Positions 1-28,900 of a stretch of DNA of 64,000 nucleotides are shown one piece after another. The stretch lies in assembly GCF_056712565.1 (NCBI RefSeq), contig NZ_CM160072.1. One strand, given 5' to 3'. Every line of letters begins with the position of its first letter. The stretch's first letter is position 1. Made by a program: the position numbers and the translations under genes. The notes under the pieces are model-generated. The model saw only the letters and a program-made list of their open reading frames with translations. It was not told where the DNA came from and did no database searches.

Positions 1-278
1 TCTTTGCCTTTTAACTTGCAACTGGCTCGCTCGTGATTTGCATTTGCAAGCTCTCCATTTACAAGCCAATTGATATCAGCTCCCGTGTCAAGACAACACC
101 TAACTATGACATTGCCAGGTATTGCATCACGCTGAACCCAGCCGCTAACGCTGTGTTTAGCGATACCTAGCAGGTCAGCCAAATCCTTTTGCATCTTGAC
201 CCCATAGGCTGACATTAAGCGTTCCAATACGCCGTTCGTTGCACTAACACGCCACTGTACATCAAGCTCAGAACTCAT
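1..278 (-). CDS. cI: phage immunity repressor, 186 CI-like; N-terminal part only (gene runs off the window start)
   Basis: Reverse-strand ORF from ATG at 278 (MSSELDVQWRVSATNGVLERLMSAYGVKMQKDLADLLGIAK...CLDTGADINWLVNGE); resembles 186-type CI N-terminal domain from memory; divergent from early operon. Confidence 0.5.
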   Translation of the reverse strand, partial: MSSELDVQWRVSATNGVLERLMSAYGVKMQKDLADLLGIAKHSVSGWVQRDAIPGNVIVRCCLDTGADINWLVNGELANANHERASCKLKGK

Positions 279-399
279 AAAAACCCCTACAGATAATTTT
301 ATGGGTGTTTACAGAAAACTTTTTACGATCTATAGTGGCATTCATCGACCAAGATGCACACCACTGCACTACATTTCAAACAACAGGAGATAATGCGAT
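279..399. promoter_or_regulatory. divergent early promoter/operator region between repressor and early operon
   Basis: 121-bp gap between divergent cI-like and early ORFs; AGGAGA RBS 385-390 precedes ATG 400; operators not resolved. Confidence 0.3.
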
Positions 400-771
400 A
401 TGTCAGATGCAAAATCAATCTCGACGCACGACTCGCAAAACTCACAAAATCAAACTGTGCTGCTAGATCCAACACAGTTTGATGCCATCGTTACCGCCAT
501 GCTGCCAGCTCTACAGACAATGATTCGCTCCGCTATGTCAGACACGATGACTGTGAAAGACTTCGCCGCTACTCGCGGTGTTAGCGAGCGTCTGGTCTGG
601 CAATGGCTCGATGAGGGAGTTCTTCTCAAAGCTCCGACCAAAGACTTTTCCAACAAAGAGGAAGCTGCTAAACGAAGCCGAACCCTCGTAAACGTAAAAG
701 CATGGCGCGATAAGCTGACTCAACAAGCGATTGATTGTCGCTACATCGACCAGCGCACCGCTCTTAACTGA
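400..771 (+). CDS. early regulator, Apl/Cox/Cro-like (putative)
   Basis: First gene of rightward early operon, strong RBS; possible HTH TVKDFAATRGVSERLVWQWLDEG; assignment by position. Confidence 0.35.
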   Translation: MSDAKSISTHDSQNSQNQTVLLDPTQFDAIVTAMLPALQTMIRSAMSDTMTVKDFAATRGVSERLVWQWLDEGVLLKAPTKDFSNKEEAAKRSRTLVNVKAWRDKLTQQAIDCRYIDQRTALN

Positions 772-803
772 ATTTGATTATGCAAGTTAGAGGGAATTTA
801 ACC

Positions 804-1313
804 ATGTTTGATTTTCAGGTTTCCAAACATCCCCACTATGACGAAGCATGCCGCATTTTCGCACAGCGTCACAACATGGCGAAGCTGGCCGAGCGTGCAG
901 GTATGAACGTTCAAACGTTACGTAACAAGCTCAACCCGGAACAGCCTCACCAGTTCACGCCGTCTGAATTGTGGCTGCTGACTGACCTGACCGAAGACTC
1001 AACCCTCATTGATGGTTTTTTAGCGCAGATTCACTGCCTACCATGCGTGCCGGTTAATGAGTTGGCTAAAGACAAATTGCAGTCTTATGTCATGCGCGCA
1101 ATGCGTGAACTCGGCGAACTGGCGAGCGGCGCGGTATCTGATGAACGTCTGACCATTGCCCGTAAGCACAACATGATTGAAAGCGTTAACTCCGGCATTC
1201 GCATGTTGTCATTGTCGGCTCTGGCGCTGCATGCACGTCTGCAGACTAATCCAGCTATGTCGAGCGTGGTCGATACCATGAGCGGTATTGGCGCATCGTT
1301 TGGTCTGATTTGA
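804..1313 (+). CDS. cII: CII-like regulatory protein (186 CII family)
   Basis: 169 aa from ATG 804 with RBS AGAGGG 789-794; resembles 186 CII family from memory; ORF track start at 774 is a TTG extension. Confidence 0.55.
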   Translation: MFDFQVSKHPHYDEACRIFAQRHNMAKLAERAGMNVQTLRNKLNPEQPHQFTPSELWLLTDLTEDSTLIDGFLAQIHCLPCVPVNELAKDKLQSYVMRAMRELGELASGAVSDERLTIARKHNMIESVNSGIRMLSLSALALHARLQTNPAMSSVVDTMSGIGASFGLI

Positions 1314-1314
1314 G

Positions 1315-1521
1315 GTGCGTATGCTGAAAAGTGAACCGTCATTCGCATCTCTGCTCGTTAAGCAAAGCCCCGGCATGCACTACGGCCACGGCTGGATCGC
1401 AGGTAAGGACGGCAAGCGCTGGCACCCGAGCCACTCGCAGGCTGATTTACTGGCTGGCCTCTCTACTCAAAAGCGGGGGGGATCATGGCTATCGAAGCTG
1501 TTTCCGCGACTGTTCCGCTAA
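1315..1521 (+). CDS. hypothetical phage early protein
   Basis: 68-aa ORF in early operon, GC-rich codon usage like neighbours. Confidence 0.3.
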   Translation: MRMLKSEPSFASLLVKQSPGMHYGHGWIAGKDGKRWHPSHSQADLLAGLSTQKRGGSWLSKLFPRLFR

Positions 1522-1823
1522 AAGCGGGTGAACGTCTGGCCGGTCTCAATCATGTTGCCGAATTGCGCGCGAGATATTGGGGCGATAGCTGGAAAGAGGT
1601 TGAACGTTTTGTCGATGATATGCGCGATAAACGTGACCCACAATTTGAAGAAAATAATCGGGCGCTGGCCGCTATTTTCTTTCTGGCAAAAATACCGGCG
1701 GCTCGTCATGAACTCGAATTAAGTGAGCTGACTACTGACGAGAAAAAGGCGCTTATTACAGCGATGAATCATTTTCGTGCAGTAGTGAGCTTATTTCCCA
1801 AACGGCTAACCATGCCGAATTAA
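1485..1823 (+). CDS. hypothetical phage early protein
   Basis: 112-aa ORF in early operon. Confidence 0.4.
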   Translation: MAIEAVSATVPLKAGERLAGLNHVAELRARYWGDSWKEVERFVDDMRDKRDPQFEENNRALAAIFFLAKIPAARHELELSELTTDEKKALITAMNHFRAVVSLFPKRLTMPN

Positions 1824-1890
1824 TCCAAACAGAAATTTAATGGCGTAAACCCGCCGGGCATCTTATTGCCCGAAATCAGGAGAGTTAATT

Positions 1891-2118
1891 ATGCGTAATA
1901 CCGAAATCCGTAGTTTTAACACTGATAGCGATGCGCTGGCCGTATTGCTGACCGATGCAAAAAAAGAAGAGCGTAAAGACCGCGCGCTCGCTGTTTCCAT
2001 CCGCCTTGAGGCGCTGGCTATCCATATTACCAGAGAGGGAATGAGCGGCACCGAAGCTGCCGAACTGCTGCGCCGTGAAGCAACCCGCTTTGAGAATGAA
2101 TCACAGGAGCTGCACTAA
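1891..2118 (+). CDS. hypothetical phage early protein
   Basis: 75-aa ORF, stop overlaps start of next gene (ATGA 2115-2120 region). Confidence 0.4.
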   Translation: MRNTEIRSFNTDSDALAVLLTDAKKEERKDRALAVSIRLEALAIHITREGMSGTEAAELLRREATRFENESQELH

Positions 2119-2339
2119 TGGCCGACGCAATGGATTTAGCACAACTGCGCGAGCAGGAAGACCGCGAACGCCACATCAGCAACGCACGCACCCGTATCGC
2201 TGCACCTTCCCGTTTTCTTTGCGAGGAATGTGACGCACCAATCCCGGAAGCTCGCCGCATTGCGATTCCGGGCGTGGCTTTTTGCGTAACCTGCCAGCAA
2301 ATCGCAGAGCTAAAAAACAAACACTATCGGGGGGTATAA
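2118..2339 (+). CDS. TraR/DksA-family C4 zinc-finger protein
   Basis: 73 aa with CEECDAPIPEARR...FCVTCQ (CxxC-N17-CxxC) typical of phage TraR-like proteins. Confidence 0.55.
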   Translation: MADAMDLAQLREQEDRERHISNARTRIAAPSRFLCEECDAPIPEARRIAIPGVAFCVTCQQIAELKNKHYRGV

Positions 2340-2340
2340 A

Positions 2341-4563
2341 TTGGCTGTTCAATTCGCTTATCCGTGGAACGTCCCACGGTCGGCAATCTCCAGCCCATAC
2401 CTTACTTATGAGCAACAGCATCGCCGCGACCGTATGTTCGCGGCTTTGCTGCATGCAAAAAAGGTGCTTTCTCTCCAGCCCGACTGCGTGCGGTTAGATG
2501 TTTATCGCACTGCTGCGGTGCTGGAGCAAAATCAGGGTAGTCAACGAGCCAATGCATTTTTAATCAGCTTCTGCAAAAAGGCATTGCCGCGTCTTGAACT
2601 GGTCGCAAAAAAATACGAATGCGCTGGTATCAACAGCAAGGTATCAACCGCTGTTTTTGGAAGTCATTTTGATACTCAGCAAATGCAATATCTGTCGTCA
2701 CGCATGGTTAATATGGTCGCCCGATATAACCGTCTCCCGGACATGTCGCGCGCTGATGTTGACCTGTTGGCCGCTGATATTGCTAATTTCATTCGTGGTG
2801 AACTTGCCAACATTAATGACCACGGATTCGGCGAGCTTAAAACGCTGTACACCTGGTATATTCGTGCTGGCTTTATTTCCCTCCAATTCAACGTTATCCC
2901 ACCACATTGGGAGCGGGTTGAAAAAAAATATGTCGGTGCGGATGAAATCGCACCGGCTATCGCCAAAATGTTTAACGATGGGTGGTGGCGCGGTCGTTTG
3001 CGCCGTGTAGCAGCTACGTGGCGCGAACACCTGCAAATTGCAGTCGGCAACGTCAGTAAGAAAAAAAACACTTACGCGAGTAAAAACTGCGTGACTGACT
3101 GGCGTGAACAAAAGCGCCGCACTCGTGAATTTCTCAAAGGTCTGGATCTCGAAGACGAAGACGGCAACCGTATCAGCCTAATTGAAAAATATGATGGCTC
3201 AGTTGCTAACCCTGCGATTCGCCGCTGTGAGCTCATGACCCGCATTCGTGGGTTTGAAAACATCTGTAATGAGCTCGGTTATGTCGGTGAGTTTTACACT
3301 CTAACCGCGCCGTCAAAATATCACGCCACGACTAAAGCCGGTTACCGTAACAGCAAATGGAGCGGTGCCAGCCCGGCTGACACGCAAAACTATCTAACCG
3401 GTATCTGGGCGCGTATCCGTGCCAAACTACATCGGGAAGATGTCCGTATTTTCGGTATTCGTGTCGCCGAGCCCCATCACGACGGCACTCCACACTGGCA
3501 CATGCTGATGTTCATGCTGCCGGAAGATGTTGAATATGTTCGCTCCATCGTCCGTAAATACGCATGGAAAGAAGACCGCCACGAACTGAAAAGCGATAAA
3601 TCCAAAAAAGCACGTTTCCACGCGGAGTCCATTGACCCGGAGAAAGGCAGCGCAACCGGCTATGTTGCTAAATACATTTCAAAAAATATCGACGGTTATG
3701 CTCTCGATGGTGAAACCGATGATGAAAGCGGTGAGCTGCTGAAAGAGACAGCCCCCGCCGTTTCAGCATGGGCTGCGCGCTGGCACATCCGTCAGTTTCA
3801 GTTTATTGGTGGTGCGCCGGTGACGGTTTACCGTGAGTTGCGTCGCCTCGCTGATACCGAAACCGCGCACGGTCTGAGCGTTGAGTTTGCCGCCGTCCAT
3901 GATGCCGCCGACGCTGGTGACTGGGCTGGTTATGTTAATGCTCAGGGTGGGCCGTTTGTCCGTCGCGATGATTTACAGGTGCGCACACTGTATGAACCGC
4001 GTACCGAGCTTAATCAGTACGGTGAGGAAACGGTATGTATTAAGGGGGTCTACGATTCCTCCATAGGTGCAGGAAGCCCGATTTTAACCCGGCTCACTCA
4101 GTGGAAGATTGTTCCGAAGCGTGCTGTTGATTTGCCCGTTGACCTTCAGGACGGCAAAGCCGTCCCTCGGAGTTCTGTCAATAACTGTACGGGAAGCGAA
4201 AGCGATCCACCGATACTGGATTTAACAAAACCACTGAGTCGGCGTGAAAGACGAGAATTGACCAACCGACTCAGGAAGCAAAAGCCAGCAGCACGGCGAA
4301 AATTCATCCACGGAACGGATGAGCAAAACGCAGCTATAGCTAAAACTATCGATGAGATACATCTGACAACCGGCATTAATATCAGCCGGGGCGAAGCCCT
4401 GCACCTGATGGCCGGTGGTAAAAGTTGTTTTGATGGTAAATGGCTACGCGGAACGGCCAAAGGAGAAATATTTTCCGCAGCACCATCGCATGAGGCTAAA
4501 GCTCGGAAAATCCTTAATCGTGTTGCGGCGATGGCTGAAGCATTAAAACCAATACATGAGTAA
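2341..4563 (+). CDS. A: replication initiation endonuclease (P2 gpA family, rolling-circle initiator)
   Basis: 740-aa ORF (TTG start in track; true start may be downstream ATG); motifs PHWHMLMF and YVAKYISKN (active-site Tyr region) as in gpA. Confidence 0.8.
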   Translation: MAVQFAYPWNVPRSAISSPYLTYEQQHRRDRMFAALLHAKKVLSLQPDCVRLDVYRTAAVLEQNQGSQRANAFLISFCKKALPRLELVAKKYECAGINSKVSTAVFGSHFDTQQMQYLSSRMVNMVARYNRLPDMSRADVDLLAADIANFIRGELANINDHGFGELKTLYTWYIRAGFISLQFNVIPPHWERVEKKYVGADEIAPAIAKMFNDGWWRGRLRRVAATWREHLQIAVGNVSKKKNTYASKNCVTDWREQKRRTREFLKGLDLEDEDGNRISLIEKYDGSVANPAIRRCELMTRIRGFENICNELGYVGEFYTLTAPSKYHATTKAGYRNSKWSGASPADTQNYLTGIWARIRAKLHREDVRIFGIRVAEPHHDGTPHWHMLMFMLPEDVEYVRSIVRKYAWKEDRHELKSDKSKKARFHAESIDPEKGSATGYVAKYISKNIDGYALDGETDDESGELLKETAPAVSAWAARWHIRQFQFIGGAPVTVYRELRRLADTETAHGLSVEFAAVHDAADAGDWAGYVNAQGGPFVRRDDLQVRTLYEPRTELNQYGEETVCIKGVYDSSIGAGSPILTRLTQWKIVPKRAVDLPVDLQDGKAVPRSSVNNCTGSESDPPILDLTKPLSRRERRELTNRLRKQKPAARRKFIHGTDEQNAAIAKTIDEIHLTTGINISRGEALHLMAGGKSCFDGKWLRGTAKGEIFSAAPSHEAKARKILNRVAAMAEALKPIHE

Positions 4564-4637
4564 TTCATATCCATATCATGCACATACAGCAATCGCTCTA
4601 TTCGTTTTTTTTCTTCCCATCTTTTGCCAATACGTGC

Positions 4638-4657
4638 TACTGTATAAATATACAGTA
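4638..4657. promoter_or_regulatory. LexA (SOS) box overlapping sigma70 promoter for tum/dinI-like operon
   Basis: TACTGTATAAATATACAGTA = CTGT-N8-ACAG palindrome; -35 TTGCCA (4625-4630) and -10 TATAAAT inside the box; RBS GGGAGGGAT then ATG 4677. Confidence 0.6.
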
Positions 4658-4676
4658 ACCCTATGGGAGGGATTTC

Positions 4677-4859
4677 ATGGTTGGCGAACATTTCAGCCGA
4701 ACGCAGCAAAAGTGGGCTTGTGTGCAATTTATTGCCGAGGTATCTCTGATTGCAAACTGCAAGCCATCAGACTTAAAGCTCGCGCTCACTCTCATTGCAG
4801 ACCTAGCAAACAGCGAAAATAACGAAACCGAAGATGATAATTTTTATAAGGCTGATTAG
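4677..4859 (+). CDS. Tum-like N-terminal segment (putative antirepressor part), ends at in-frame TAG
   Basis: 60-aa ORF directly downstream of LexA box; TAG 4857-4859 then ATT then ATG 4863 in the same frame. Confidence 0.4.
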   Translation: MVGEHFSRTQQKWACVQFIAEVSLIANCKPSDLKLALTLIADLANSENNETEDDNFYKAD

Positions 4860-4862
4860 ATT

Positions 4863-5093
4863 ATGAGAATCAATATCACGTTGGATAAAGAGCAAAAATT
4901 AGGGCAACAGATCATTGATGCTTTTCAGAATGAAATAACACATCGAGTACAATGCGTTTTTCCTGCAACAAAAGTTAACGTTAAGAAAGGGTCAATGACT
5001 GGTGTAGAGGCTATCGGATTCGATAAAGAGGCGGACAGAGAAACATTAGGCAGCATATTACAAGAGATTTGGGAAGACGATAGCTGGCGTTAA
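4863..5093 (+). CDS. DinI-family protein (Tum C-terminal domain-like)
   Basis: 76 aa MRINITLDKEQKLGQQIIDAFQNEITHRVQCVFP...LGSILQEIWEDDSWR matches DinI pattern (MRIEVTIAK...ISEILQETWESADDW) from memory. Confidence 0.6.
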   Translation: MRINITLDKEQKLGQQIIDAFQNEITHRVQCVFPATKVNVKKGSMTGVEAIGFDKEADRETLGSILQEIWEDDSWR

Positions 5094-5126
5094 ACATAAT
5101 AACCGTGCTGGCGCAAAAACTAGCTT

Positions 5127-5163
5127 TTTGCGTCGGCGGGGTTGAGTAACGAGCCCACGAGGC
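5127..5163. repeat. copy 1 of ~32-bp imperfect direct repeat (GGCGGGGTTGAnnAACGAGCnCnCGAGGC)
   Basis: cggcggggttgagtaacgagcccacgaggc here vs tggcgggggttgaacaacgagcaccgcgaggc at 5539-5570. Confidence 0.5.
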
Positions 5164-5292
5164 TTAAGTCCTGCCTTTCAAAATTTCTCAATGTGCTATT
5201 GATGACACGCCCATGATTAATGAGGCATGACCTGAGATGGTTTTATAGTGGCGTTTTGACGGCACTGATTAAAATTCATTGAGGGTGATAAT

Positions 5293-5502
5293 ATGCATCG
5301 ACTACCAGGTGAAATACCGCAGCACAAAACTAAAAGCATCAAACTGATGGCCATCGTTCATCGTTTGCAGCAGATAATGGTCAATGAGAATTTGACACCC
5401 GCAGAGCTGGTCGGGTGTGCCGAAATAGTCAGGGATAATTACGGCAAGCTGGATAGCATCAGCAGGTCGAAACAATACGCACCACCACCACGTCGACGAT
5501 AG
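5293..5502 (+). CDS. hypothetical small protein (69 aa)
   Basis: ORF with RBS GAGGGTGATAAT before ATG; flanked by the two direct repeats. Confidence 0.4.
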   Translation: MHRLPGEIPQHKTKSIKLMAIVHRLQQIMVNENLTPAELVGCAEIVRDNYGKLDSISRSKQYAPPPRRR

Positions 5503-5530
5503 CAAACGCCGCCGGTTCTGAAACTCGCTT

Positions 5531-5573
5531 TCAGTACTGGCGGGGGTTGAACAACGAGCACCGCGAGGCGTTA
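5531..5573. repeat. copy 2 of ~32-bp imperfect direct repeat
   Basis: See copy 1; both copies preceded by a short hairpin (CGCAAAAA..TTTTTGCG at 5117-5137; CTGAAA..TTTCAG at 5519-5534). Confidence 0.5.
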
Positions 5574-5576
5574 GCA

Positions 5577-6518
5577 TTAATTTATTTTTAATGAATGGTA
5601 ATCTCGTGAGTTGACCGAAGATTTGAGATAACTGCAATCATTAACCGACAGTATTGCCGCTAATAGGCGACATACCAGTGCCTGCATTTGCAGCAATATA
5701 TCGTTACCATATTGACTGTTGTTAACACTTGAGAAACCAAGCGGTTGACCAAAAAAAATAGCCTCATGAAAATTATCATTGCGGATGCCAGAAATGTTTT
5801 TTTTACCTGACACCCATGTGGGGATTGATAACCCATAAATTTTGCACATCCACTTTAATCGCTTGTAATGATTTGGCGGTTTTTTATCAGGAGCCTTGTC
5901 ATGCTCAGCCCACGACAAAGCAAAGCACCCATCAAGTGCCATGTAAAGATACTGGAATTTTTCAAAAGAAAGGTATTGTGGGTTTTGAGATAAGAATAGT
6001 GCATGCACCACTGCCGCAATTCTTTTGGGGGAGTGCGCATCCTTATGTTTGCCATTTATATAATTAAGAGCCAGTTCTATGACTTCTTTTTCAGAGCATC
6101 CAACGAGAATAAAGTCGGTTAACTTAGTGGGCTTGATAGTGGTTGCATCTAAAAAACCAGCGTCAGTGGTTGTCAATCTTATTCCCTTGAAAAAAGAAAG
6201 GCACCACACAATAAAGTTGAGAGTTTCTAACGAGGATGTATTTTTTAATTTTAGTGTGTGCGTTTTGGGCATACTGAATACTCGGTGACTATAAGGCATT
6301 GTGGATATGCCACCATTAAGGTTATATACATCTTGGTTTCCAGGGTATATCCAACCTTTCACAACGTTTTTATCATTATTAACACGCTCCACTTTCTCAT
6401 TGAGACCAGGTAAAGTAAGCAAAGAAAATTGTTCAGTCTCAATGTTAACTTCTACTGGATAGTATCCAAACTCCGACATAATCTCATTGGGTTGCTGTTC
6501 GTCAACTTCACCTTGCAT
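5577..6518 (-). CDS. hypothetical cargo protein, 313 aa, with RNxxxH motif (possible HEPN-like)
   Basis: AT-rich ORF unlike flanking phage DNA; motif GIRNDNFHEAIFF (R-x4-H) near C-terminus; no other recognisable domain. Confidence 0.6.
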   Translation of the reverse strand: MQGEVDEQQPNEIMSEFGYYPVEVNIETEQFSLLTLPGLNEKVERVNNDKNVVKGWIYPGNQDVYNLNGGISTMPYSHRVFSMPKTHTLKLKNTSSLETLNFIVWCLSFFKGIRLTTTDAGFLDATTIKPTKLTDFILVGCSEKEVIELALNYINGKHKDAHSPKRIAAVVHALFLSQNPQYLSFEKFQYLYMALDGCFALSWAEHDKAPDKKPPNHYKRLKWMCKIYGLSIPTWVSGKKNISGIRNDNFHEAIFFGQPLGFSSVNNSQYGNDILLQMQALVCRLLAAILSVNDCSYLKSSVNSRDYHSLKIN

Positions 6519-6541
6519 ATCTTTCTCCGTTCAAAAATAGG

Positions 6542-6557
6542 CTCGATAATTATCGAG
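6542..6557. promoter_or_regulatory. perfect 16-bp palindrome upstream of the 313-aa gene (candidate operator)
   Basis: CTCGATAATTATCGAG, 24-39 bp upstream of start codon at 6518 on reverse strand. Confidence 0.35.
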
Positions 6558-6755
6558 AGGCTATCATGTTTGGAAAGAACCAATGTCCGTAATTTTTGTA
6601 AATTTAAGGTGATTTATCAATAAATAAGCTGTGCATGCAACAGGTGCATGGTTCTGCATGCGCCGGGGTTACCCGTTTTGTACGTGCGCCGCAAGAGCTG
6701 GCGGGGATCCAGAGTGGTCATGCAACTGCATTAAAACCGCCCCATAAAGCGGGCA

Positions 6756-6774
6756 GGCGTGGCGGGGAAAGCAT
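6756..6774. other. cos: cos cohesive-end sequence, 186 type
   Basis: GGCGTGGCGGGGAAAGCAT equals the 19-nt 186 cohesive end as recalled (P2 GGCGAGGCGGGGAAAGCAC); in GC-rich non-coding stretch between A-side cargo and portal gene. Confidence 0.6.
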
Positions 6775-6993
6775 TGCGCGTCAGCAGTGATGCGTAATAA
6801 TAAAAATTATCCTCTGAGCGCGTCGTGATGGCGCTGTCGTGGTCGCTGCTGGTTCGTTGGTGGTCGGGTGTGTTCGTGCGCGTGAGACGCATCTGATGCG
6901 TGATGGTGGTGTGCATGGAAAAGCCACCAGGAGCAGCGGCTTTACAGGAGTGGCAGGATTCAAACTGCTAATTATGTTTCTACTATGATTAAA

Positions 6994-7998
6994 CTAATTT
7001 ACATGTATGTAGAGTTCACCGTCGCCAGACCAATCGGGACACTCTAAAACAAGCCCAAACTGCTTGAATATTTCATCAATGATTATTGTTATCTCCCGAA
7101 AATCACCAAAACCTGTAATGTGCTGGTCATTAAACTTCCCATAAAGATTCTGAAAAGCAATGCCTAATTCTGATAATTGATATCTTATCTTTGAGTTGGA
7201 TAGTGTAAGGGATAGCTTTGGATCGTATTCTTTAATATTGATGTTTAGAGAATGGACATAACCCATCGCATAAGCATAAGAGTTGATGATTAGCCTGATA
7301 CGTTTTTTTACTTCGAGATACATGTCATTCAGAGAAATATTACCGTACTTATAACCCCAGATGAGTTTTTCAATCTCGTCAGATACTTCATTTACAACAG
7401 TGTCAAGATTCTCTAAAAATAAATCGATAGTTTCTTGAGGGGCAGACCCCGAAGACATGTAATTAGCGAGATATTCAGACCATGCACGCGTGGCTGAGAT
7501 AAGAAGCGCGCTACCATACTCGTTGACTGTAAAGTTTTGGGCTAAGCATGTTAGTAAGTTTTTTTCATGTACGTGCACTAATTCATGGTGAATGCGATGG
7601 ATGACTGCGAGGTATCCTTCTTCTTTCAGTTTTAAGAAGCTACCATCATTGAAAAGCTCAACAAAAAAATCAATCGATAGCACAAGGGTATATTCTTCAC
7701 ATAGCCCATCATTGCCAATTTTTGTTACTAACTGCCCGACGGCTGCGCCCTGTTTACTATTGGTAAATGAACTAGGGGATTTGTGTTGGTAAGAGGATGT
7801 TACCTTTTGAAGAGCTTCACTGAAGTTATAGGAAACAATCACGCATTTTAATTTGGAGATATCAAGATTGAGATTTTTTGTTAAAGCTCGGATAGCTTCT
7901 AGTGTGAAATTACCGATATTATTTGCTTCTTGCTCAGTAGCGAAACCTTCGAGGGTTATTTTAAAATCAGTTTCCAAAATATTAATCTCCGCGCCCAT
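6994..7998 (-). CDS. hypothetical cargo protein, 334 aa, HExxH...E zinc-metallopeptidase-like motif
   Basis: AT-rich ORF between cos and portal gene; HELVH with Glu 22 residues after first His (gluzincin-like spacing). Confidence 0.6.
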   Translation of the reverse strand: MGAEINILETDFKITLEGFATEQEANNIGNFTLEAIRALTKNLNLDISKLKCVIVSYNFSEALQKVTSSYQHKSPSSFTNSKQGAAVGQLVTKIGNDGLCEEYTLVLSIDFFVELFNDGSFLKLKEEGYLAVIHRIHHELVHVHEKNLLTCLAQNFTVNEYGSALLISATRAWSEYLANYMSSGSAPQETIDLFLENLDTVVNEVSDEIEKLIWGYKYGNISLNDMYLEVKKRIRLIINSYAYAMGYVHSLNINIKEYDPKLSLTLSNSKIRYQLSELGIAFQNLYGKFNDQHITGFGDFREITIIIDEIFKQFGLVLECPDWSGDGELYIHVN

Positions 7999-8016
7999 TG
8001 TTTTGATATTCGATGC

Positions 8017-8045
8017 ACTATAGCTTTCGCAGATTGCATCTTCAA
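8017..8045 (-). promoter_or_regulatory. putative sigma70 promoter for the HExxH gene
   Basis: Reverse strand TTGAAG -17 bp- TATAGT about 20 nt upstream of ATG at 7998. Confidence 0.3.
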
Positions 8046-8075
8046 TAATGAGCGCAGAGATTGTGGCGGCCTAAG

Positions 8076-9122
8076 TTATTCTGGGTTGTCGAGGGTGTAC
8101 TCTTTGAATCTGATGACCTCCATGCCGAGCCAGTCATTTACCTCCCTGAACCTGTCCTGTAGCGGCGACAGCTCGTTGCGCACAAATACCTTTGCCACCT
8201 TCTCAACATCACCGAGTGAACCGATATTCTCGGGCTTGCCGCCCATGAGCTGGAACGGTACGCGGTGCGCGTCCATCAGATCGGCGGCACTGGCCTTCTT
8301 GATGTTGAAAAAGTCATCCTTTGTGGCGACCTCGCTCAGTGGCACGATTTTGATGCCGTCCGGTTTTCCGCCGGGAGCGTAGAAAAACAGGTTCTTAAAG
8401 TTGCCGAGCCCTTTTGAGTTGCGCATCGCCTCGCGCAGCGATTCGACGTCGGTCGCGCTCTGCGCCGGGTCAGTCACATACATGATGTAACCCGCGTGCG
8501 CGCCGTTCTGATAATACTTGCGGCGGAACAGCGTCGCGGATTCATTCAGCCAGGCGGAATTTAGCGCGCTGAGATATTCGGGCAGGCCGTAAATCTCCTG
8601 ATTAATGTCGGGCTCCAGCAGGTGAAACACGGTATCAGGCGCGAACTCGTGCGGCTGGGTGAAGTTTTCCACAAACCAGAAAATCGAATCGTCGACTCCG
8701 CGTCGGGTGTATTTGGCTGGCGAGGCCAGCAGTTTGATTAACTGGCCGGTGACGCTGTGGCGCTGCTCAAGAAAGGCGTTACCGAACACCAGATAATCGA
8801 GCGCAAAGCGGCTGAAATCCTGACGGGATAACAACGGGTGCGGAATGTAGGTGCTCGCGAGCACGTTACGCTTAACATAAATTGGCGAGCTGTGATGCAC
8901 GGCAGAGCGCAGGCTCTTTGCCAGCCCTGAGAAGCTGACCGGCGGCTCGTACCATTTGCCGTTACTGATGCACTCGACGTAATCCAGAATGTCGCGCTTA
9001 TCGAGTACCGGCACCGGCTCGCCGAAGGTGAACGCTGTCGTTTTTGGCGGTGCGCTGGCGGTCAGTTGTTGTGGTTTGCTGGCCTTTTGTGCGTTGGCTT
9101 TACGGGATTTTTGTTTACCCAT
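8076..9122 (-). CDS. Q: capsid portal protein (P2 gpQ family)
   Basis: 348 aa, size/position as P2 Q, immediately downstream of terminase on reverse strand. Confidence 0.8.
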   Translation of the reverse strand: MGKQKSRKANAQKASKPQQLTASAPPKTTAFTFGEPVPVLDKRDILDYVECISNGKWYEPPVSFSGLAKSLRSAVHHSSPIYVKRNVLASTYIPHPLLSRQDFSRFALDYLVFGNAFLEQRHSVTGQLIKLLASPAKYTRRGVDDSIFWFVENFTQPHEFAPDTVFHLLEPDINQEIYGLPEYLSALNSAWLNESATLFRRKYYQNGAHAGYIMYVTDPAQSATDVESLREAMRNSKGLGNFKNLFFYAPGGKPDGIKIVPLSEVATKDDFFNIKKASAADLMDAHRVPFQLMGGKPENIGSLGDVEKVAKVFVRNELSPLQDRFREVNDWLGMEVIRFKEYTLDNPE

Positions 9123-9123
9123 T

Positions 9124-10893
9124 TTAGTTGAACTCCAGAATAGATTTAGGCTGCATGCCGCTACCGGCAGAAAGCGGTTCGTTTAACAGGGCGTGCATGG
9201 TCGCCCATGCGATATCGGCGTGGCTGGCTTCCTCGGTGCGGCTGGCCTCATAGGTGGCGCTGCGCCCGCTGCTGGTCATGGTTTTGCGGATGGACATAAA
9301 CGACTGCGTGACGTCGGTTGCTCCGGCGTCGTACTCCAGACAGCCACGGCGAATGGTGTCTTTCGCCTTGAGTACCATTGCGGTTTTCATTTCAGGTGTG
9401 TAACGGATGCCGCGTGCCGCCGGGTAAAATGAGCGCACCAGCTGGAACACGCCGAGACCGAGGCCGGTTGCGTCAATGCCGATGTATTCGACGTTGTATT
9501 TCTCGGTCAGCTTGCGGATGCCCTCTGCCTGTGCTGCAAAATCCATGCCCTTCCACTGGTGGCGCTCCAGCATGCGGAACTTGCCACCAGAGACCACCGG
9601 CGGCGCGAGCACGACGCACCCGGCACTGTCGCCGGTGTGTGACGGGTCGTAGCCAATCCAGACAGGACGAGAGCCGAACGGATGGTCGGCGAACGGGGCA
9701 AAGTCCTCCCATTCCTCCATCACATCGACCATGCAGCGCTGCAGCTCCTCGAACGGGAATACCGACGCTTTATCGTCGACAAACTCGCACATAAACAGGT
9801 TCTTAAAGTCCTCATCACTGTTTTCGCGTTTGAGCTGGTCGAGGTCGAACAGGGTGCAGCCACCCGCAAGGGCGTCCTCAATGGTGACAATCTGCCGCCA
9901 CTGGCCATCGTCGCAGAGCTGGCCACCGGCGAGCGCGCTGTGACTGATGTCGATTTCGATGCGGTCGGCAATCCGGCTGCGCCCCTTGTTGAACAGCTCG
10001 CCAGACCAGAAGGGGTAAGCGCCGTGCGCCAGCGTGGAAGGTGTCGAAAAATAGGTCGAGCGCAGGTGCTTTTGCGAGGCCATGCCCGAGGCGACTTTGC
10101 GCAGTTTCTGAAAATTCGGGATCCAGAATATTTCATCGACATACAGATCGCCGTTATGGCTCTGCGCGGTGTTGGAATTGGTACCGAGAAAAATCAGTTT
10201 TGCGCCGTTGTTACCGATGACAATCGGGTCGCCAGTCAGGTCAACGTCGACCAGTCGCGCAAACTGGATGATGTATTCGCGGAACACGTAAGCCTGCGTT
10301 TTACTGGCTGATAAAAATATCTGGTTATGGCCGGTTTTGAGTACGCGCAGCAGTGCCTCGCGGGAGAAATAGAATGTCGCGCCAATCTGGCGGGATTTGA
10401 GAATGTCACGAATACGGTGCTCCAGTCCTGCGCGGTACCACTGCAACTGGTACTCGAAAGACTGGTCGAAAAATAATTCCTCTAGTTTATCGATAGCCTC
10501 GTCGCTGAAAAAATTCTTTTTCGGCTTTTTGCGCTCCCCTTTGTTGCGGTTGGCGACGTTGGGGTTAAGGTCGGCTTCGTTGCCGGTCTGGCTGTAGCGG
10601 TTGACTCGCGCCAACCGTTCAATCTGCCGTCCGAGCAGGTCAATCTCTTTGAAATCACCCCCTGTCTTTTGCGGCTTGGCGATGAGCTGAATCAGCCTAG
10701 CCTCAAGGCTGCTTTCAACGCGGGAAATCGGCGCGATGCCGTCCCAGCCGTCGCGCTGCTTCCAGCTCTGCACGGTCGGGCGCTTGACCTGCAGCATTTC
10801 GGCAATCTGTGGCACGGAAAAACCCTGCCAGTAAAGCAGCGATGCCTGCCGTCGCGGGTCATGCAACAAGGTTGTATCGGTGGAAATGGTCAT
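9124..10893 (-). CDS. P: terminase large (ATPase) subunit (P2 gpP family)
   Basis: 589 aa, size/order as P2 P. Confidence 0.8.
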   Translation of the reverse strand: MTISTDTTLLHDPRRQASLLYWQGFSVPQIAEMLQVKRPTVQSWKQRDGWDGIAPISRVESSLEARLIQLIAKPQKTGGDFKEIDLLGRQIERLARVNRYSQTGNEADLNPNVANRNKGERKKPKKNFFSDEAIDKLEELFFDQSFEYQLQWYRAGLEHRIRDILKSRQIGATFYFSREALLRVLKTGHNQIFLSASKTQAYVFREYIIQFARLVDVDLTGDPIVIGNNGAKLIFLGTNSNTAQSHNGDLYVDEIFWIPNFQKLRKVASGMASQKHLRSTYFSTPSTLAHGAYPFWSGELFNKGRSRIADRIEIDISHSALAGGQLCDDGQWRQIVTIEDALAGGCTLFDLDQLKRENSDEDFKNLFMCEFVDDKASVFPFEELQRCMVDVMEEWEDFAPFADHPFGSRPVWIGYDPSHTGDSAGCVVLAPPVVSGGKFRMLERHQWKGMDFAAQAEGIRKLTEKYNVEYIGIDATGLGLGVFQLVRSFYPAARGIRYTPEMKTAMVLKAKDTIRRGCLEYDAGATDVTQSFMSIRKTMTSSGRSATYEASRTEEASHADIAWATMHALLNEPLSAGSGMQPKSILEFN

Positions 10894-11058
10894 TGATGCC
10901 TCGCCGTAGTGGATTCAGGGCAAGGCTACTTAATGGCCGTCAGTGATTCGCTAAGGTGCTGTTGTGTGGGCGGTTGTCCAGTCGTCATTGGTGGTCTGGC
11001 GTGTCCTGAGTCTGGAAACTGGCGGTGACCAGTAACCTCAACCTCAGGACTCCTGACA
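10894..11058. promoter_or_regulatory. divergent late promoter region (P-Q leftward, O-N-M-L rightward)
   Basis: Intergenic region between divergent late operons as in P2; individual activator sites not resolved. Confidence 0.4.
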
Positions 11059-11913
11059 ATGGCAAAAAAAGTCTCAAAATTCTTTCGCATCGGCGTCGAG
11101 GGTGACACCTGCGACGGCCGCATTATCAGCGGCAACGATATTCAGGAAATGGCCGAATCGTTTGACCCTCGCGTCTACGGTTGCCGCATTAACCTTGAGC
11201 ATATTCGCGGTCTCTTTCCTGATGGCGACTTCAAACGCTTAGGCGATGTGGTTGAACTGAAAGCTGAAATAATTGACGACGATTCTGCGCTTAACGGCAA
11301 ATGGGCGTTGTTCGCCAGAATCACCCCAACCGACGACCTGATTGCGATGAATAAAAAATTGCAGAAGGTCTACACCTCAATGGAAATTCAGCCGAATTTT
11401 GCCAATACCGGCAAATGCTACCTCGTCGGCCTTGCTGTCACCGATGACCCGGCGAGCCTCGGCACTGAATACCTCGAATTCTGCCGCAACGCGAAGCACA
11501 ACCCTCTGCAGCGCTTTAAGGCCAACCCTGAAAACGTCTTTTCCGCTGCCACGCTGGCCGAACTGGAATTTGAAGACGTTCCCGATACGGTGCTAAACAG
11601 CCTGGCAGATAAGGTTAAAGCCATTTTCAGCCGTAAGCAGGTCAGCGACGATGCGCGCCTGAATGATGTGCATGAAGCGGTGACCACCGTCAGCGAGCAT
11701 GTGCAGACCAACCTCACTGCGCAGGATAAGCGTCTTTCCGCTATGGAAGCCGCGCTTACCACCTTTAAACAGGAACTGACCGGCAAGATTGAAGAAACCA
11801 GCCAGGCATTTTCCGCCCTGAAAGCCACCCTCGACAAAACCGAAAGTTTCAGCCAGCCGCGACGCACGAAAGCCAGCGGCGGTGGTGGCGATGAGCTGCT
11901 GACCGACTGCTGA
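11059..11913 (+). CDS. O: capsid scaffolding protein (P2 gpO family)
   Basis: 284 aa, same length as P2 O; first gene of rightward capsid operon. Confidence 0.8.
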   Translation: MAKKVSKFFRIGVEGDTCDGRIISGNDIQEMAESFDPRVYGCRINLEHIRGLFPDGDFKRLGDVVELKAEIIDDDSALNGKWALFARITPTDDLIAMNKKLQKVYTSMEIQPNFANTGKCYLVGLAVTDDPASLGTEYLEFCRNAKHNPLQRFKANPENVFSAATLAELEFEDVPDTVLNSLADKVKAIFSRKQVSDDARLNDVHEAVTTVSEHVQTNLTAQDKRLSAMEAALTTFKQELTGKIEETSQAFSALKATLDKTESFSQPRRTKASGGGGDELLTDC

Positions 11914-11989
11914 TAAACCGCAGACCAGAAACCGGGCGGTAACTCCGCCCGATGCAGTGACTAACCGATAAATTCAAACAGGAAATACT

Positions 11990-13057
11990 ATGCGCCCGGA
12001 AACCCGTTTTAAGTTCAATGCCTATCTGACCCGCGTCGCTGAGCTGAACGGCATCAGCACTGATGACGTCAGTAAAAAATTCACCGTCGAGCCGTCCGTC
12101 ACGCAAACGCTGATGAACAAAGTGCAGGAGTCATCCGCGTTTCTGCAGACGATTAACATTCTGCCGGTCGCAGAAATGAAGGGTGAGAAAATCGGCGTCG
12201 CTGTGACCGGTACTATCGCCAGCACGACCGACACCTCGGGCGATGATGAGCGTAAGACCGCAGACTTCACCGCGCTTGAGTCCAACAAGTACGAGTGCGA
12301 CCAGATTAACTTTGACTTCCATCTGAAATATAAAACCCTCGACCTGTGGGCGCGTTTTCAGGACTTTCAGCGCCGCATCCGTGACGCCATTGTTAAGCGT
12401 CAGGCGCTCGATTTCATCATGGCCGGTTTTAACGGTACCACCCGCGCCGCCACCTCTGACCGCACCAAAAATCCGATGCTGCAGGATGTAGCCGTCGGCT
12501 GGCTGCAGAAATACCGCAACGAAGCCCCGACGCGTGTGATGAGCAATATCACCGATGCTGACGGTAAGGTCGTTTCGGCAGTGATTCGCGTCGGTAAAAA
12601 CGGCGACTATGAGAACCTCGACGCGCTGGTGATGGATGCTACCAACAACCTGATTGACGAGGTTTATCAGGATGACCCGAAACTCGTTGCCATCGTTGGC
12701 CGTAAGCTGCTGGCCGACAAATATTTCCCGCTGGTGAACAAGCCGCAAGAAAACAGCGAAGCGCTCGCGGCAGATATCATCATCAGCCAGAAGCGAATCG
12801 GCAACCTGCCTGCTGTGCGTGTGCCGTACTTCCCGGCGAATGCCGTGTTAGTGACAACGCTGGAAAACCTCTCTATCTATTTCATGGATGAGAGCCACCG
12901 CCGCAGCATTGATGAAAACCCGAAAAAAGACCGCGTGGAAAACTACGAGTCAATGAATATCGACTATGTGGTCGAGGCGTATGCCGCCGGGTGTCTGCTG
13001 GAAAACATCACCCTAGGCGATTTCACCGCACCTGCAGCACCGGAAAGCGGAGAGTAA
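11990..13057 (+). CDS. N: major capsid protein (P2 gpN family)
   Basis: 355 aa, order O-N-M-L. Confidence 0.8.
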   Translation: MRPETRFKFNAYLTRVAELNGISTDDVSKKFTVEPSVTQTLMNKVQESSAFLQTINILPVAEMKGEKIGVAVTGTIASTTDTSGDDERKTADFTALESNKYECDQINFDFHLKYKTLDLWARFQDFQRRIRDAIVKRQALDFIMAGFNGTTRAATSDRTKNPMLQDVAVGWLQKYRNEAPTRVMSNITDADGKVVSAVIRVGKNGDYENLDALVMDATNNLIDEVYQDDPKLVAIVGRKLLADKYFPLVNKPQENSEALAADIIISQKRIGNLPAVRVPYFPANAVLVTTLENLSIYFMDESHRRSIDENPKKDRVENYESMNIDYVVEAYAAGCLLENITLGDFTAPAAPESGE

Positions 13058-24722: not shown

Positions 24723-27160
24723 ATAACCTGAGACTTGAGGTTTTGCTGAAAGCGGTCGACCAGGCGACCCGACCGCTTAAATCCATCCAGACCGCGAGTA
24801 AAACCCTGTCGGGCGATATTCGCGACACACAAAAAGGGCTGCGTGACCTGAACGGGCAGGCCGCGAAAATCGACGGCTTTCGCAAAACCAGCGCTCAACT
24901 GGCCGTAACCGGCCAGTCGCTGGAGAAGGCAAAGCGCGAGGCTGAAGCGCTTGCCACGCAATTCAAAAATACTGAGCGCCCGACGCGAGCGCAGGCACAG
25001 GTGCTCGAATCCGCAAAACGTGCCGCCGAGGGGCTGCAGGTTAAATACAACAGCCTCACCGAGTCGGTTAAACGCCAGCAACGCGAGCTGGGTGCCGCCG
25101 GTATCAATACCCGCAATCTGGCAAACGATGAGCGGGGGCTTAAAACACGTATCAGCGAGACGACGGCGCAGCTCAACCGGCAGCGTGAAGCATTGGCGAA
25201 GGTCAGCGCACAGCAGGCGCACCTAAACCGAGTGAAAGAGCGATATAAATCGGGTAAGGAGCTTGCCGGTAACATGGCCGCTGCAGGTGCTGCCGGGGTC
25301 GGTATTGCGACAGCGGGAACGATGGCCGGGGTTAAATTGCTGATGCCCGGTTATGACTTTGCGCAAAAAAACTCCGAGCTGCAGGCTGTGCTCGGGGTCG
25401 ATAAGCAGTCGCCAGAAATGCAGGCGTTACGCAAACAGGCGCGCCAGCTCGGTGACAATACAGCCGCTTCTGCTGATGATGCAGCCAGTGCGCAGATTAT
25501 CATTGCAAAAGGTGGTGGTGATGCGGCGGCTATAGCGGCCATGACACCTGTGACTCTCAACCTGTCGCTTGCAAACAAAAAAACAATGGAGGAAAACGCG
25601 CAACTGTTGATGGGGACAAAAGCCGCCTTTCAACTTTCTAATGACGCGGCTGCGCATATCGGTGATGTTCTTTCAACCACGATGAACAAAACCACCGCTG
25701 ATTTTCAGGGACTAAGTGACTCATTAAGTTACCTTGCCCCTGTTGCGAAAAATGCTGGGGTGAGTCTTGAACAGGCGGCGGCGATTACCGGCACACTTCA
25801 TGATAATAACATCAGGGGGTCAATGGCTGGGACTGGCGGCGCTGCTGTTATAACGAGACTACAGGCACCCACAGGCAAAGCATACGATGCTCTCAAAGAG
25901 CTGGGAGTTAAAACCTCAGACAGCAAAGGCAATACGCGCCCGCTATTTACCATCCTGAAAGAAATGCAGGCCAGTTTTAAGCGCAACAATCTTGGTACCT
26001 CACAAAAGGCCGAGTACGTGAAAACGATATTCGGCGAGGAGGCTATGAAGTCTGCAAGTGTCCTTATGGCGGCAGCGGCAAGCGGAAAACTCGATAAGCT
26101 AACTGCCACGATAAAGGATTCAGACGGTAAAACAGAGGAGCTGGTCAAGGTTATGCAGGATAACCTCGGCGGCGACTTCAAGGAGTTCCAGTCAGCATAT
26201 GAGGCGGTCGGCACTGACCTCTATGACCAGCAAGATAGCTCATTGCGTCAGCTAACTCAGACAGCAACACGGTATGTGCTAAAGCTTGATGACTGGATCA
26301 AAGACAACAAGGAGTTAGCGGAAACTATCGGCATCATCGCCGGTGGTGCGCTGGCGCTGATTGGTATCATCGGCGGCATTGGTCTCGTTGCGTGGCCGGT
26401 TGTCATGGGGATTAATGCAATTATCGCCGCTGCTGGCGTGCTGGGTACGGTCTTTACTGTCGTCGGTAGTGCCATTGCGACAGCGCTCGGTGCGATTACC
26501 TGGCCGATAGTGGCCGTCGGTGCGGCGATTGTGGCGGGGGCGCTACTCATCCGTAAATATTGGGAGCCCATCAGCGCATTTTTCTCGGGAGTGATTGAAG
26601 GCATCATGAGTGCCTTTGCCCCAGTCGGGGAAATGTTAGCTCCACTGGCTCCCATTTTTGATGGTCTCGGCGAGAAACTGCGCGGCGTCTGGCAGTGGTT
26701 TAAAGACCTGATAGCACCGGTTAAGGCCACGCAGGAAACGCTTGATAGCTGCAAAAATGTCGGCGTCATATTTGGTCAGGCACTGGCCTCTGCCTTGATG
26801 GCTCCGCTCAATGTTTTTAACAAGCTGCGCAGCGGTGTCGACTGGCTTCTCGAAAAGCTCGGCATCATCAACAAAGAGTCGGACAGCCTCGACCAGACCG
26901 CCGCCAAAACCAATGCCGCCACACAGGGTAATTCCTACATCCCGGCAACCAGCACATATGGCGGCTATCAGGCTTATCAGCCAGTTACCGCACCGGCGGG
27001 GCGCTCTTACATTGACCAGAGCAAAAGCGAATACAACATCAATCTGCCGGGAGGTGTTGCGCCGGGGCATCAGCTTGACAGACAACTACGCGACACGCTC
27101 GAACAGATTGAGCGCGATAAACGCGCCCGCCAGCGTGCCAACATGACCCACGACTATTGA
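24716..27160 (+). CDS. T: tail tape measure protein (P2 gpT family)
   Basis: 814 aa, coiled-coil N-terminal half, Gly/Ala-rich hydrophobic segment. Confidence 0.85.
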   Translation: MSNNLRLEVLLKAVDQATRPLKSIQTASKTLSGDIRDTQKGLRDLNGQAAKIDGFRKTSAQLAVTGQSLEKAKREAEALATQFKNTERPTRAQAQVLESAKRAAEGLQVKYNSLTESVKRQQRELGAAGINTRNLANDERGLKTRISETTAQLNRQREALAKVSAQQAHLNRVKERYKSGKELAGNMAAAGAAGVGIATAGTMAGVKLLMPGYDFAQKNSELQAVLGVDKQSPEMQALRKQARQLGDNTAASADDAASAQIIIAKGGGDAAAIAAMTPVTLNLSLANKKTMEENAQLLMGTKAAFQLSNDAAAHIGDVLSTTMNKTTADFQGLSDSLSYLAPVAKNAGVSLEQAAAITGTLHDNNIRGSMAGTGGAAVITRLQAPTGKAYDALKELGVKTSDSKGNTRPLFTILKEMQASFKRNNLGTSQKAEYVKTIFGEEAMKSASVLMAAAASGKLDKLTATIKDSDGKTEELVKVMQDNLGGDFKEFQSAYEAVGTDLYDQQDSSLRQLTQTATRYVLKLDDWIKDNKELAETIGIIAGGALALIGIIGGIGLVAWPVVMGINAIIAAAGVLGTVFTVVGSAIATALGAITWPIVAVGAAIVAGALLIRKYWEPISAFFSGVIEGIMSAFAPVGEMLAPLAPIFDGLGEKLRGVWQWFKDLIAPVKATQETLDSCKNVGVIFGQALASALMAPLNVFNKLRSGVDWLLEKLGIINKESDSLDQTAAKTNAATQGNSYIPATSTYGGYQAYQPVTAPAGRSYIDQSKSEYNINLPGGVAPGHQLDRQLRDTLEQIERDKRARQRANMTHDY

Positions 27161-27173
27161 GGGGGATTAAACG

Positions 27174-27659
27174 ATGATGCTTGCTCTCGGAATGTTTGTG
27201 TTTGAACTTCGCACCCTGCCTTACCAGTCGATGCAGCATTCGAAAGATTATCGCTGGGTGTCCAATGACCGGGTGGGTAAACCACCTGCCTATCAGTTTC
27301 TTGGCGAGGGGGAAACCTCTATACAGCTTGCTGGTACGCTATACCCCGCTATCACTGGCGGTTGGATCTCACTAAAGGCTGTAGAGGTGATGGCCAATGA
27401 AGGCAGAGCGTGGCCGTTGATAGAGGGAACCGGAAATATCCTCGGGATGTATATCGTCGATAAAGTATCGACTACACGCACCGAGTTTTTCAGTGATGGT
27501 GCGGCCAGAAAGATTGATTTCACGCTTTCGCTAAAACGGGTTGATGAATCGCTGACAGAGATGTTTGGTGACCTGAATAAACAGGCCAGTGAGCTTCTCG
27601 GCTCTGCCGGTAATTTGACAGATAAACTGCAGGGTATGCCCGGAGGTTTCACTGCATGA
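27174..27659 (+). CDS. U: tail protein U (P2 gpU family)
   Basis: 161 aa, order T-U-D. Confidence 0.75.
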   Translation: MMLALGMFVFELRTLPYQSMQHSKDYRWVSNDRVGKPPAYQFLGEGETSIQLAGTLYPAITGGWISLKAVEVMANEGRAWPLIEGTGNILGMYIVDKVSTTRTEFFSDGAARKIDFTLSLKRVDESLTEMFGDLNKQASELLGSAGNLTDKLQGMPGGFTA

Positions 27660-28825: not shown

Positions 28826-28900
28826 AAAAGCAAATCATAACTTGCAAATGCAATTTTAGAGTTTATTATTCCCTCAAACGCGCCAGCAGGGGGAAAAATT

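Follow-up and report, generated by a model that had tools for sequence, protein, structure and literature searches.

The DNA analysed here, a stretch of 64,000 nt from contig NZ_CM160072.1 of assembly GCF_056712565.1 (hereafter the window), carries a P2-family phage of the 186/PSP3 type, as judged from gene layout and database matches. Between its replication gene A (2341-4563, + strand) and the cohesive-end site, cos, lies the variable region known as 'tin-old', in which a preliminary description of the window had recorded a pair of imperfect direct repeats of about 32 bp. Both repeats are copies of a discrete, strongly conserved noncoding element of about 70 nt, which we call E. The upstream copy, E1 (5101-5168, + strand), begins 7 nt past the TAA stop codon (5091-5093) of a dinI/tumB-like gene (4863-5093, + strand; Pfam DinI PF06183, E=1.7e-17; PSP3 TumB), which is itself preceded by a tumA-like open reading frame (ORF; 4677-4859). 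A 124-nt spacer (5169-5292, + strand) separates E1 from a 69-aa ORF of the PSP3 gp37 family (5293-5502, + strand; phrog_11386, E=1.5e-47; C-terminus ...PPPRRR), for which Pfam and NCBIfam searches gave no match. The TAG stop codon of this ORF (5500-5502) stands just before the second copy, E2 (5505-5574, + strand), and spacer, ORF and E2 together make up a unit of about 405 nt. Beyond E2 lies the convergent cargo gene ORF313 (313 aa; 5577-6518, - strand; P2-EC67 ORF313, phrog_5937), whose stop codon is 3 nt from the end of E2. The 69-aa ORF between the repeats and the start of each copy just past a stop codon were therefore described correctly.

That the two + strand copies are real and related was borne out by several searches. 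Within the window the pattern GGCGGGGTTGARYAACGAGC matched twice, both times on the + strand, against 0.01 matches expected; a repeat finder placed the copies in families D1 and D6 at a spacing of 404-405 nt; and covariance model R1, trained only on copies from other genomes, returned exactly two copies from the 64 kb (5499-5579 with 91.6 bits and 5095-5173 with 66.7 bits). A further model, R2, scored E1 at 59.9 bits and E2 at 78.8 bits. The size given for the repeat was too small, and the identity, reported as about 85%, is about 80% in the segment originally compared; 48 of 70 positions (69%) agree over the whole unit. The hairpin said to precede each repeat is not a separate structure, as the repeat's GGCGGGG core is the 3' arm of that very stem. 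Two further copies that had been proposed at 6660-6706 share only a 7-9-mer with E and were picked up by neither R1 nor R2; phage 186 does not conserve them, its homologous positions reading GCGTCAGGCTTGCCCG and GCTGGCGCGGCTCC. E1 is a diverged variant (GAGTAAC...GGCTTAAG) that also occurs behind the same dinI allele in six other loci (L088, L092, L118, L103, L037 and L128), and E2 differs from the phage 186 copy by two substitutions and one inserted base.

Structure and conservation of the element

A core-pattern scan of viral contigs recovered more than 120 loci, and 83 distinct copies align over about 70 nt, beyond which identity is lost abruptly, with AAAC at the left edge and GTTAG at the right edge. 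The consensus of the family is identical to positions 30343-30412 of phage 186. The 5' part of E is a long hairpin, P1 (5101-5143 in E1 and 5505-5548 in E2), of 43 nt with 17-19 bp, usually a 5-nt loop, and always AAC...GTT at its base; the 43-nt length was found in 101 of 136 distinct stems. RNAalifold and direct counting both gave this hairpin running from AAC to GTT.

The stem is maintained by compensatory change. Scans anchored on the tail of the element, and not on its stem, recovered copies with entirely different stems that still pair (for example AACGTTGCGGACG.../...CGTCCGCAACGTT), and the GGCGGGG arm becomes GGTGGTG, GGCAGGG, CGCGAGG or CATGGGG in other lineages. In alignment A1, 96% of cells were paired and 34 cells carried double changes, compared with 6 in shuffles. 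Alignment A3 showed double changes in 14 of 15 pairs, with 161 double-change cells (48 in shuffles) and 41 pair types (27 in shuffles), values that were attained by 0 of 500 shuffles, and alignment A4 gave the same picture. Pairing was seen in 95-96% of cells on the broader alignments and fell to 23-48% when the partner column was slid as a control. This covariation shows purifying selection for the fold, and the copies are therefore not the junction scars of cargo cassettes that had been suggested, although the suggested location at cargo junctions proved right.

The 3' part of E is a tail reading GAACAA-CGAG-(4-6 variable nt)-CGAG-GCGTTAG, in which GAACAA is a single-stranded linker, the variable middle is the loop of a small hairpin (P2 of the element) closed by the two CGAG segments, and GCGUUAG ends the element. 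In E1 the tail occupies 5144-5168, with the mini-hairpin CGAG-CCCA-CGAG at 5150-5161; in E2 the linker lies at 5549-5554, the small hairpin (CGAGCACCGCGAG, containing GAGG) at 5555-5567 and GCGTTAG at 5568-5574. Pairing of CGAG with CGAG gives C-G, G.A, A.G and G-C, such that tandem G.A/A.G mismatches are held between a C-G and a G-C pair. The tail is essentially constant even where the identity of the gene A protein drops to 66%. Where it does vary, G10→A is accompanied by C16→T in three of five distinct variants (background about 10%), C7 changes to T alone and keeps a U.G pair, positions 11 and 15 are C-G, U-A or U.G in 74 of 93 sequences, and one copy (locus L175) has Watson-Crick pairs in place of the tandem mismatches. 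The small hairpin differs from a kink-turn in that C7-G19 lies directly beside G8.A18, with no 3-nt bulge. Two other pairings were discarded: an outer AACGCC/GGCGTT helix closing E, because its 5' bases change in step with the 3' arm of P1 and GGCGTT is invariant, and a GGGG/CCCC stem in the 186 copy, because CCC there belongs to the variable loop.

The fold is specific to one strand. Stem cells contain 126 G.U pairs versus 16 A.C pairs, and the same columns are paired at 95.8% on the + strand and at 86.8% on the - strand. The RNA fold of E1 has an energy of -32.6 kcal/mol, and the z scores are -4.7 (E1) and -2.4 for the window copies and -4.3 for the consensus on the + strand, versus -1.3 (E1) and -0.9 for the window copies on the - strand; the folding energy is significant on the + strand only. 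From the G.U bias, the pairing and the energies it follows that the constraint acts on the sense strand in single-stranded form, either as RNA or as displaced + strand DNA. The invariant single-stranded GAACAA and GCGUUAG suggest that this strand has a sequence-specific partner.

Genomic position and distribution

All 145 full-length copies examined point in the same direction as gene A and start 0-36 nt past a stop codon, behind at least five unrelated upstream genes that include dinI/tumB, the gp37 family and an orf97-like family. In one lineage (L208, L213, L231, L232 and L242; left flank ...gctggctgatcgaggtaac...), a dinI-like frame apparently enters the 5' arm of the hairpin and stops in its loop, so that E appears to overlap coding sequence there. 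To the right of GTTAG the sequence is unrelated between phages, with 78 distinct flanks in a first set and 199 in all, and the distance from E to cos ranges from 209 to 3153 nt. The left edge of the variable cargo region coincides with the last base of E. The preliminary description had asked whether copies follow cos or cargo boundaries; they track with the left cargo boundary and not with cos. In phage 186, E follows orf97 and precedes the annotated terminator t95b, 212 nt short of cos. Because it lies upstream of this terminator of the p95 operon, it is predicted to be inside the p95 transcript.

The window has two copies because the 405-nt unit, with its spacer, 69-aa gene and own E, sits behind the E of dinI. 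The order dinI-E1-(124 nt)-gp37-E2, at a spacing of about 405 nt, was seen in 20 sequences including the window, and outside the window the 124-nt spacer is confined to the 19 other two-copy loci fetched (79-100% identity). A second kind of stack, with two copies about 970 nt apart, occurs at four loci (L011 1706-2752, L215 1091-2143, L251 6722-7774 and L292 7442-8493); in L011, the one in which ORFs were checked, the order is gp37-E-orf97-like-E. Where ORF313 is the cargo gene after E, the gene in front of E can be dinI, either gp37 type or an orf97-like gene, four different ones in all, which shows that the left and right neighbours of E reassort freely. A gp37-family gene is followed by E without a gap in at least 70 fetched loci, all of them chosen for carrying E. 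The exception is L139 (12300-12420), where a gp37-like stop codon is followed by a t95b-like terminator region and E is precisely missing; E therefore behaves as a discrete unit of insertion or deletion.

Matches to the tail were found at 1134 places in 1025 of 5426 complete E. coli genomes (about 19%), at 1-3 places per genome, and there was no other tail match in these genomes. Among the contexts inspected, E was found only in P2/186-like prophages. It is present in 67 phage records, comprising Escherichia, Salmonella and Klebsiella phages as well as phages isolated on Yersinia and Erwinia. When 67 gene A loci were compared, each from a different species' representative genome, 14 had E and 53 did not. 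Thirteen of the 14 are labelled Escherichia, Citrobacter, Enterobacter, Kluyvera or unnamed Enterobacteriaceae or Enterobacterales. The remaining one, L175 (CACSKA010000005.1), is labelled Chryseobacterium sp. 18061 and is an enterobacterial-type P2-like prophage with a gene A 81% identical to that of the window; this assembly is likely contaminated or mislabelled. Neither R1 nor R2 found E in the gpA loci of Erwinia, Pantoea, Xenorhabdus or Serratia, and E is absent from canonical P2. The one plasmid copy whose context was inspected is on a conjugative IncC plasmid of about 200 kb from Klebsiella (L196; NZ_CP025141.1), where a P2-like prophage (26244-38312) has E in the same context, followed by a reverse-transcriptase cargo gene. 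A further 14 plasmid records (120-216 kb; Klebsiella, E. coli, Enterobacter, Citrobacter and Providencia) match at the same identity.

The element is unannotated in the GenBank records of 186, PSP3, Wphi and P2-EC67. Rfam 15 gave no match at E<=1 over positions 1-12000 and none on E at E<=10 over 5085-5590. The tail sequence was not found in the literature searched, nor was a prior description of E. A 2004 study by Nilsson and colleagues, whose title reportedly refers to site-specific recombination here, may already have described a conserved sequence at the flank. A keyword search of two papers on the gene A-to-cos hotspot (Rousset 2022, PMC9122126; bioRxiv 10.64898/2026.02.27.708500) brought up no conserved noncoding element at its border.

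Possible functions of the element

With the anatomy, conservation, strand bias and genomic position of E established, we infer its transcription in the window phage and its stabilising or processing, translational and recombination roles. The reading that we favour, with slightly less than even confidence, is that E works in cis as part of the mRNA and doubles as an anchor of homology through which cargo is exchanged. A role in mRNA is favoured because E stands in sense orientation after a stop codon, lies before a terminator in 186, and is adjoined by genes that have its GAGG in front of them. This GAGG, in the small hairpin, is Shine-Dalgarno-like and lies 7-9 nt upstream of the ATG of the adjoining gene. 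An ORF starts 1-3 nt past E in 38 of the 199 distinct right contexts, 33 of them in a single 85-aa family, phrog_2100. There is no room for a promoter before such a gene, and polymerase and ribosomes must therefore read through E.

The conserved phrog_2100 gene (85-88 aa; MAKSADKFKIVHRGE...GGGYWLG...) starts exactly 2-3 nt after E in many copies. It was seen as the neighbour of E in L208 (5179-5259(-) onward), L213, L226, L228, L231, L232, L235, L237, L241-L243 and many of L270-L360, all copies that come from the tail-anchored scans. It apparently uses the GAGG of the element as its Shine-Dalgarno sequence, and it may be the ancestral neighbour of E.

Under the mRNA reading, E would end the gene A/SOS (tum-dinI) transcription unit, where it would most likely be transcribed and act in cis. 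The long stem could give the upstream message a defined end, nuclease-resistant or processable, regardless of which cargo lies downstream, and the small hairpin could present or hide the ribosome-binding site of the next gene. Known stabilising or processing hairpins, such as REP/BIME in operons, T7 RNase III sites and lambda sib, are similar in several respects: they are sense-strand stem-loops of about two helical turns, they come directly behind a stop codon, within a polycistronic phage or bacterial message or at its end, their structure is kept over their sequence, and a downstream ribosome-binding region adjoins them. An RNase III processing site is a double-stranded RNA of about 20 bp cleaved by that enzyme, and the stem of E has 17-19 bp. 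E differs from these hairpins in its invariant 26-nt tail, which holds a second hairpin containing G.A pairs, and its cleavage or stabilisation is putative. REP in particular has no sequence similarity to E and occurs hundreds of times per genome, whereas E occurs in 1-2 copies per prophage, at 1-3 places per genome, and every context inspected was a P2-like prophage, the plasmid copy included.

As the last conserved block before the variable region, E would also be the left homology arm for cargo exchange; the conserved E of about 70 bp and a conserved block adjacent to cos would together allow cargo to be swapped by recombination. In this respect E resembles the boundary or linker sequences of lambdoid phages, which are short conserved noncoding blocks at the junction of conserved and variable modules, where neighbours reassort. 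Such module boundary sequences reportedly figure in the Susskind-Botstein model and in work by Clark and colleagues from 2001. Unlike them, E shows compensatory evolution of its fold and a strand bias, and it is therefore selected for more than homology. We rate E as a new instance of the conserved intercistronic or boundary elements of phages.

Several observations weigh against this combination of roles. A stabiliser joined to a ribosome-binding site leaves the near-invariant GAACAA and GCGTTAG unexplained, and E is unchanged where no gene starts after it and also where the neighbouring gene is convergent. RNA and single-stranded + strand DNA predict identical covariation and the same G.T/G.U bias. 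The covariation support for the small hairpin is real but comes from few independent lineages and from pattern-selected samples. Finally, any function of E must be dispensable, as P2 and 53 of the 67 gpA-bearing loci do without it.

If the constraint acted on DNA, the nick made by gpA would displace the + strand, and folded E could serve as a lagging-strand priming or primosome-assembly site of the sso, ssi or pas kind, which we consider unlikely. Such a signal would fit a + strand-specific structure in which G.T is tolerated, and signals of this class typically combine hairpins of conserved length with unpaired stretches that are conserved as well; the phiX174 pas, G4 oric and plasmid sso are likewise orientation-specific noncoding hairpins downstream of an HUH-initiator origin. 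E lies 0.9-1.4 kb downstream of, and on the same strand as, the rolling-circle nick motif inside gene A (4166-4181, + strand), which matches the phage 186 origin exactly (CTCGGAGTTCTGTCAA), is the sole match in the window and corresponds in position to the rep_origin annotated in the 186 record. Some variants of E contain GCGAAGC, reported from phage origins as a DNA mini-hairpin of great stability. However, P2 shares this mode of replication and dispenses with E, as do most relatives; the invariant part, as read from its sequence, has neither a CTG primase start nor a DnaA box, nor any other known recognition motif; and the nicked strand and fork direction are assumptions of this reading, which leaves the fixed position relative to stop codons and the translational link through GAGG-to-ATG spacing unexplained. 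A site for cassette recombination, at which units of an ORF plus E are captured serially by a strand-specific recombinase (attC-like or HUH-type) acting on folded E, seems to us slightly less probable still. The two stacking orders, dinI-E-gp37-E at 20 loci and the second stack of the four loci named above (gp37-E-orf97-like-E in L011), the precise absence in L139 and the sharpness of both edges all speak for it. As with the integron attC (59-base element), E follows the ORF of each unit, the units can be stacked, the hairpin is imperfect, strand-specific and of similar size with AAC...GTT at its stem ends, translation signals can be given to the next gene, and the 3' stem end plus linker, GTTGAAC, fits the integron core GTTRRRY. 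Yet attC works through its bottom strand, and E folds better on the sense, coding strand; beyond AAC/GTT the R''/R' boxes (RYYYAAC, GTTRRRY) do not pair, the four outer bases (GACA, GAAC) being non-complementary in all alignments; the tail is invariant; and E is confined to a single locus in a single group of phages. No recombinase of its own accompanies E, and no IntI-type integrase was found: none lies next to it at the loci inspected, although no systematic scan of the window for IntI was made. The gpA nick motif (CTCGGAGTYCTGTCAA) has its single window match at 4166-4181 and none in E even at <=3 mismatches, and E is identical in P2-type and 186-type phages despite their different ori sequences. 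There are only two stacking types, each apparently of single origin, and the reassortment is accounted for just as well by homologous recombination within an identical block of 70 bp. In its narrower form, with E as an attC-like site whose single-strand fold is cut and rejoined by a recombinase that stacks ORF-plus-E units and defence cargo at the tin-old hotspot, we regard the proposal as improbable; if true, it would constitute a mechanism of defence-gene shuffling distinct from homologous recombination.

That E insulates transcription, or terminates it in both directions, where the early operon meets convergent cargo genes is comparably improbable. E2 does take up the whole of the 74 nt that separate two stop codons facing each other (5502 and 5577), the same convergent arrangement is found in 14 of 78 right-flank classes, and behind a dinI that lacks E an ordinary terminator can take its place (L139; t95a of 186). 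The + strand stem, however, is followed by GAACAACGAG and not by a U-tract, in agreement with the earlier statement that the repeats are not terminator-like. The - strand stem is weakened by A.C mismatches and precedes variable, only partly U-rich sequence; a terminator scan mis-parses the inner A/T run of E; 186 carries its separate terminator, t95b, 23 nt downstream of the element; and read-through is forced in the 38 contexts with a co-directional gene 1-3 nt past E. It is very unlikely that E acts in trans, as a small RNA or protein decoy released from the operon transcript. Two stable hairpins around invariant single-stranded stretches, conserved independently of both neighbouring genes, would suit such an RNA, but its best target in the 186 genome (-36.5 kcal/mol) lies within the range of shuffles (-28 to -38), neither a promoter nor a terminator of its own was found in E, and no Rfam family or second match of the tail in the E. 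coli genomes supports it. A double-stranded site for the terminase small subunit, related to cos as had been proposed, now has almost no probability, and we consider it largely refuted. It was suggested by GGCGGGG and GCGAGGCG, both of which are in the P2/186 cohesive-end sequence, and by three occurrences of TGGCGGGG within a 1.3-kb part of the window; for P2 we take cos to read GGCGAGGCGGGGAAAGCAC. Since the GGCGGGG arm covaries freely and the tail stays constant, the likeness of that arm to cos is coincidental. E stands at no fixed distance from cos, P2 lacks E yet packages its DNA normally, the extra copies flanking cos are unconserved in 186, and the asymmetry between G.U and A.C speaks against a duplex-DNA target.

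The gene A-to-cos region of P2-like phages is well known as a hotspot of anti-phage defence genes (PMC9122126; bioRxiv 10.64898/2026.02.27.708500). E gives this hotspot a precise and searchable left boundary, with cargo beginning at the base after GTTAG, and it does so in the model phage 186 as well as in about one fifth of complete E. coli genomes. Should E act in the mRNA, as we favour, it would be a candidate new RNA family, and it would show how an essential operon is insulated from adjacent cargo and how a phage supplies cargo with translation signals. Should it rather be a signal for recombination or replication, it would have a direct bearing on the exchange of defence cargo.

Other sequence features of the region

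A number of further resemblances were considered for E and set aside. The stem arm contains GCTGGCGG in E2 (5531-5543) and in consensus copies, one mismatch from Chi (GCTGGTGG) and oriented such that RecBCD entering at the right cos end meets its 3' side first, which is the active direction; Enterobacter-type copies carry GCCGGTGG in its place, and this Chi-like octamer facing cos is lost once stems diverge. A promoter in E (TTGAAC, an 18-19 nt spacer, TAGnnn) has a poor -10, was not flagged by the scan and runs into unconserved downstream bases, and a LexA box in the stem (CTG-N11-CAG) has the wrong spacing and is variable. Resemblances to boxA, Hfq AAYAAY, RNase E sites, CRISPR repeats and the U4 K-turn were weak by eye. 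Base-pairing of the tail with a target within phage 186 did not score beyond shuffled controls, and mimicry of a host RNA was dropped, the tail having no other match in the 5426 E. coli genomes.

To the right of E2, a 29-nt inverted repeat with 79% complementarity (family I1 of the repeat finder; 5749-5777 and 6545-6573) has one arm upstream of the ORF313 start codon and the other inside the 3' end of ORF313, and may be due to chance. A conserved block with repeated TGCATGC at 6628-6665 (GTGCATGCAACAGGTGCAT...TGCATGCG) lies about 100-130 nt ahead of cos and recurs in 186 (L125, about 2203-2245). It is the right edge of the variable region and a better candidate for a packaging-related site than E. 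The cohesive-end sequence itself, GGCGTGGCGGGGAAAGCAT, lies outside the element at 6756-6774 (+ strand), and the 186 record annotates a cos of 19 nt. On the other side of cos, before the portal gene (8076-9122, - strand), an ORF of 334 aa (6994-7998, - strand; phrog_11743) is itself variable and looks like a second variable slot.

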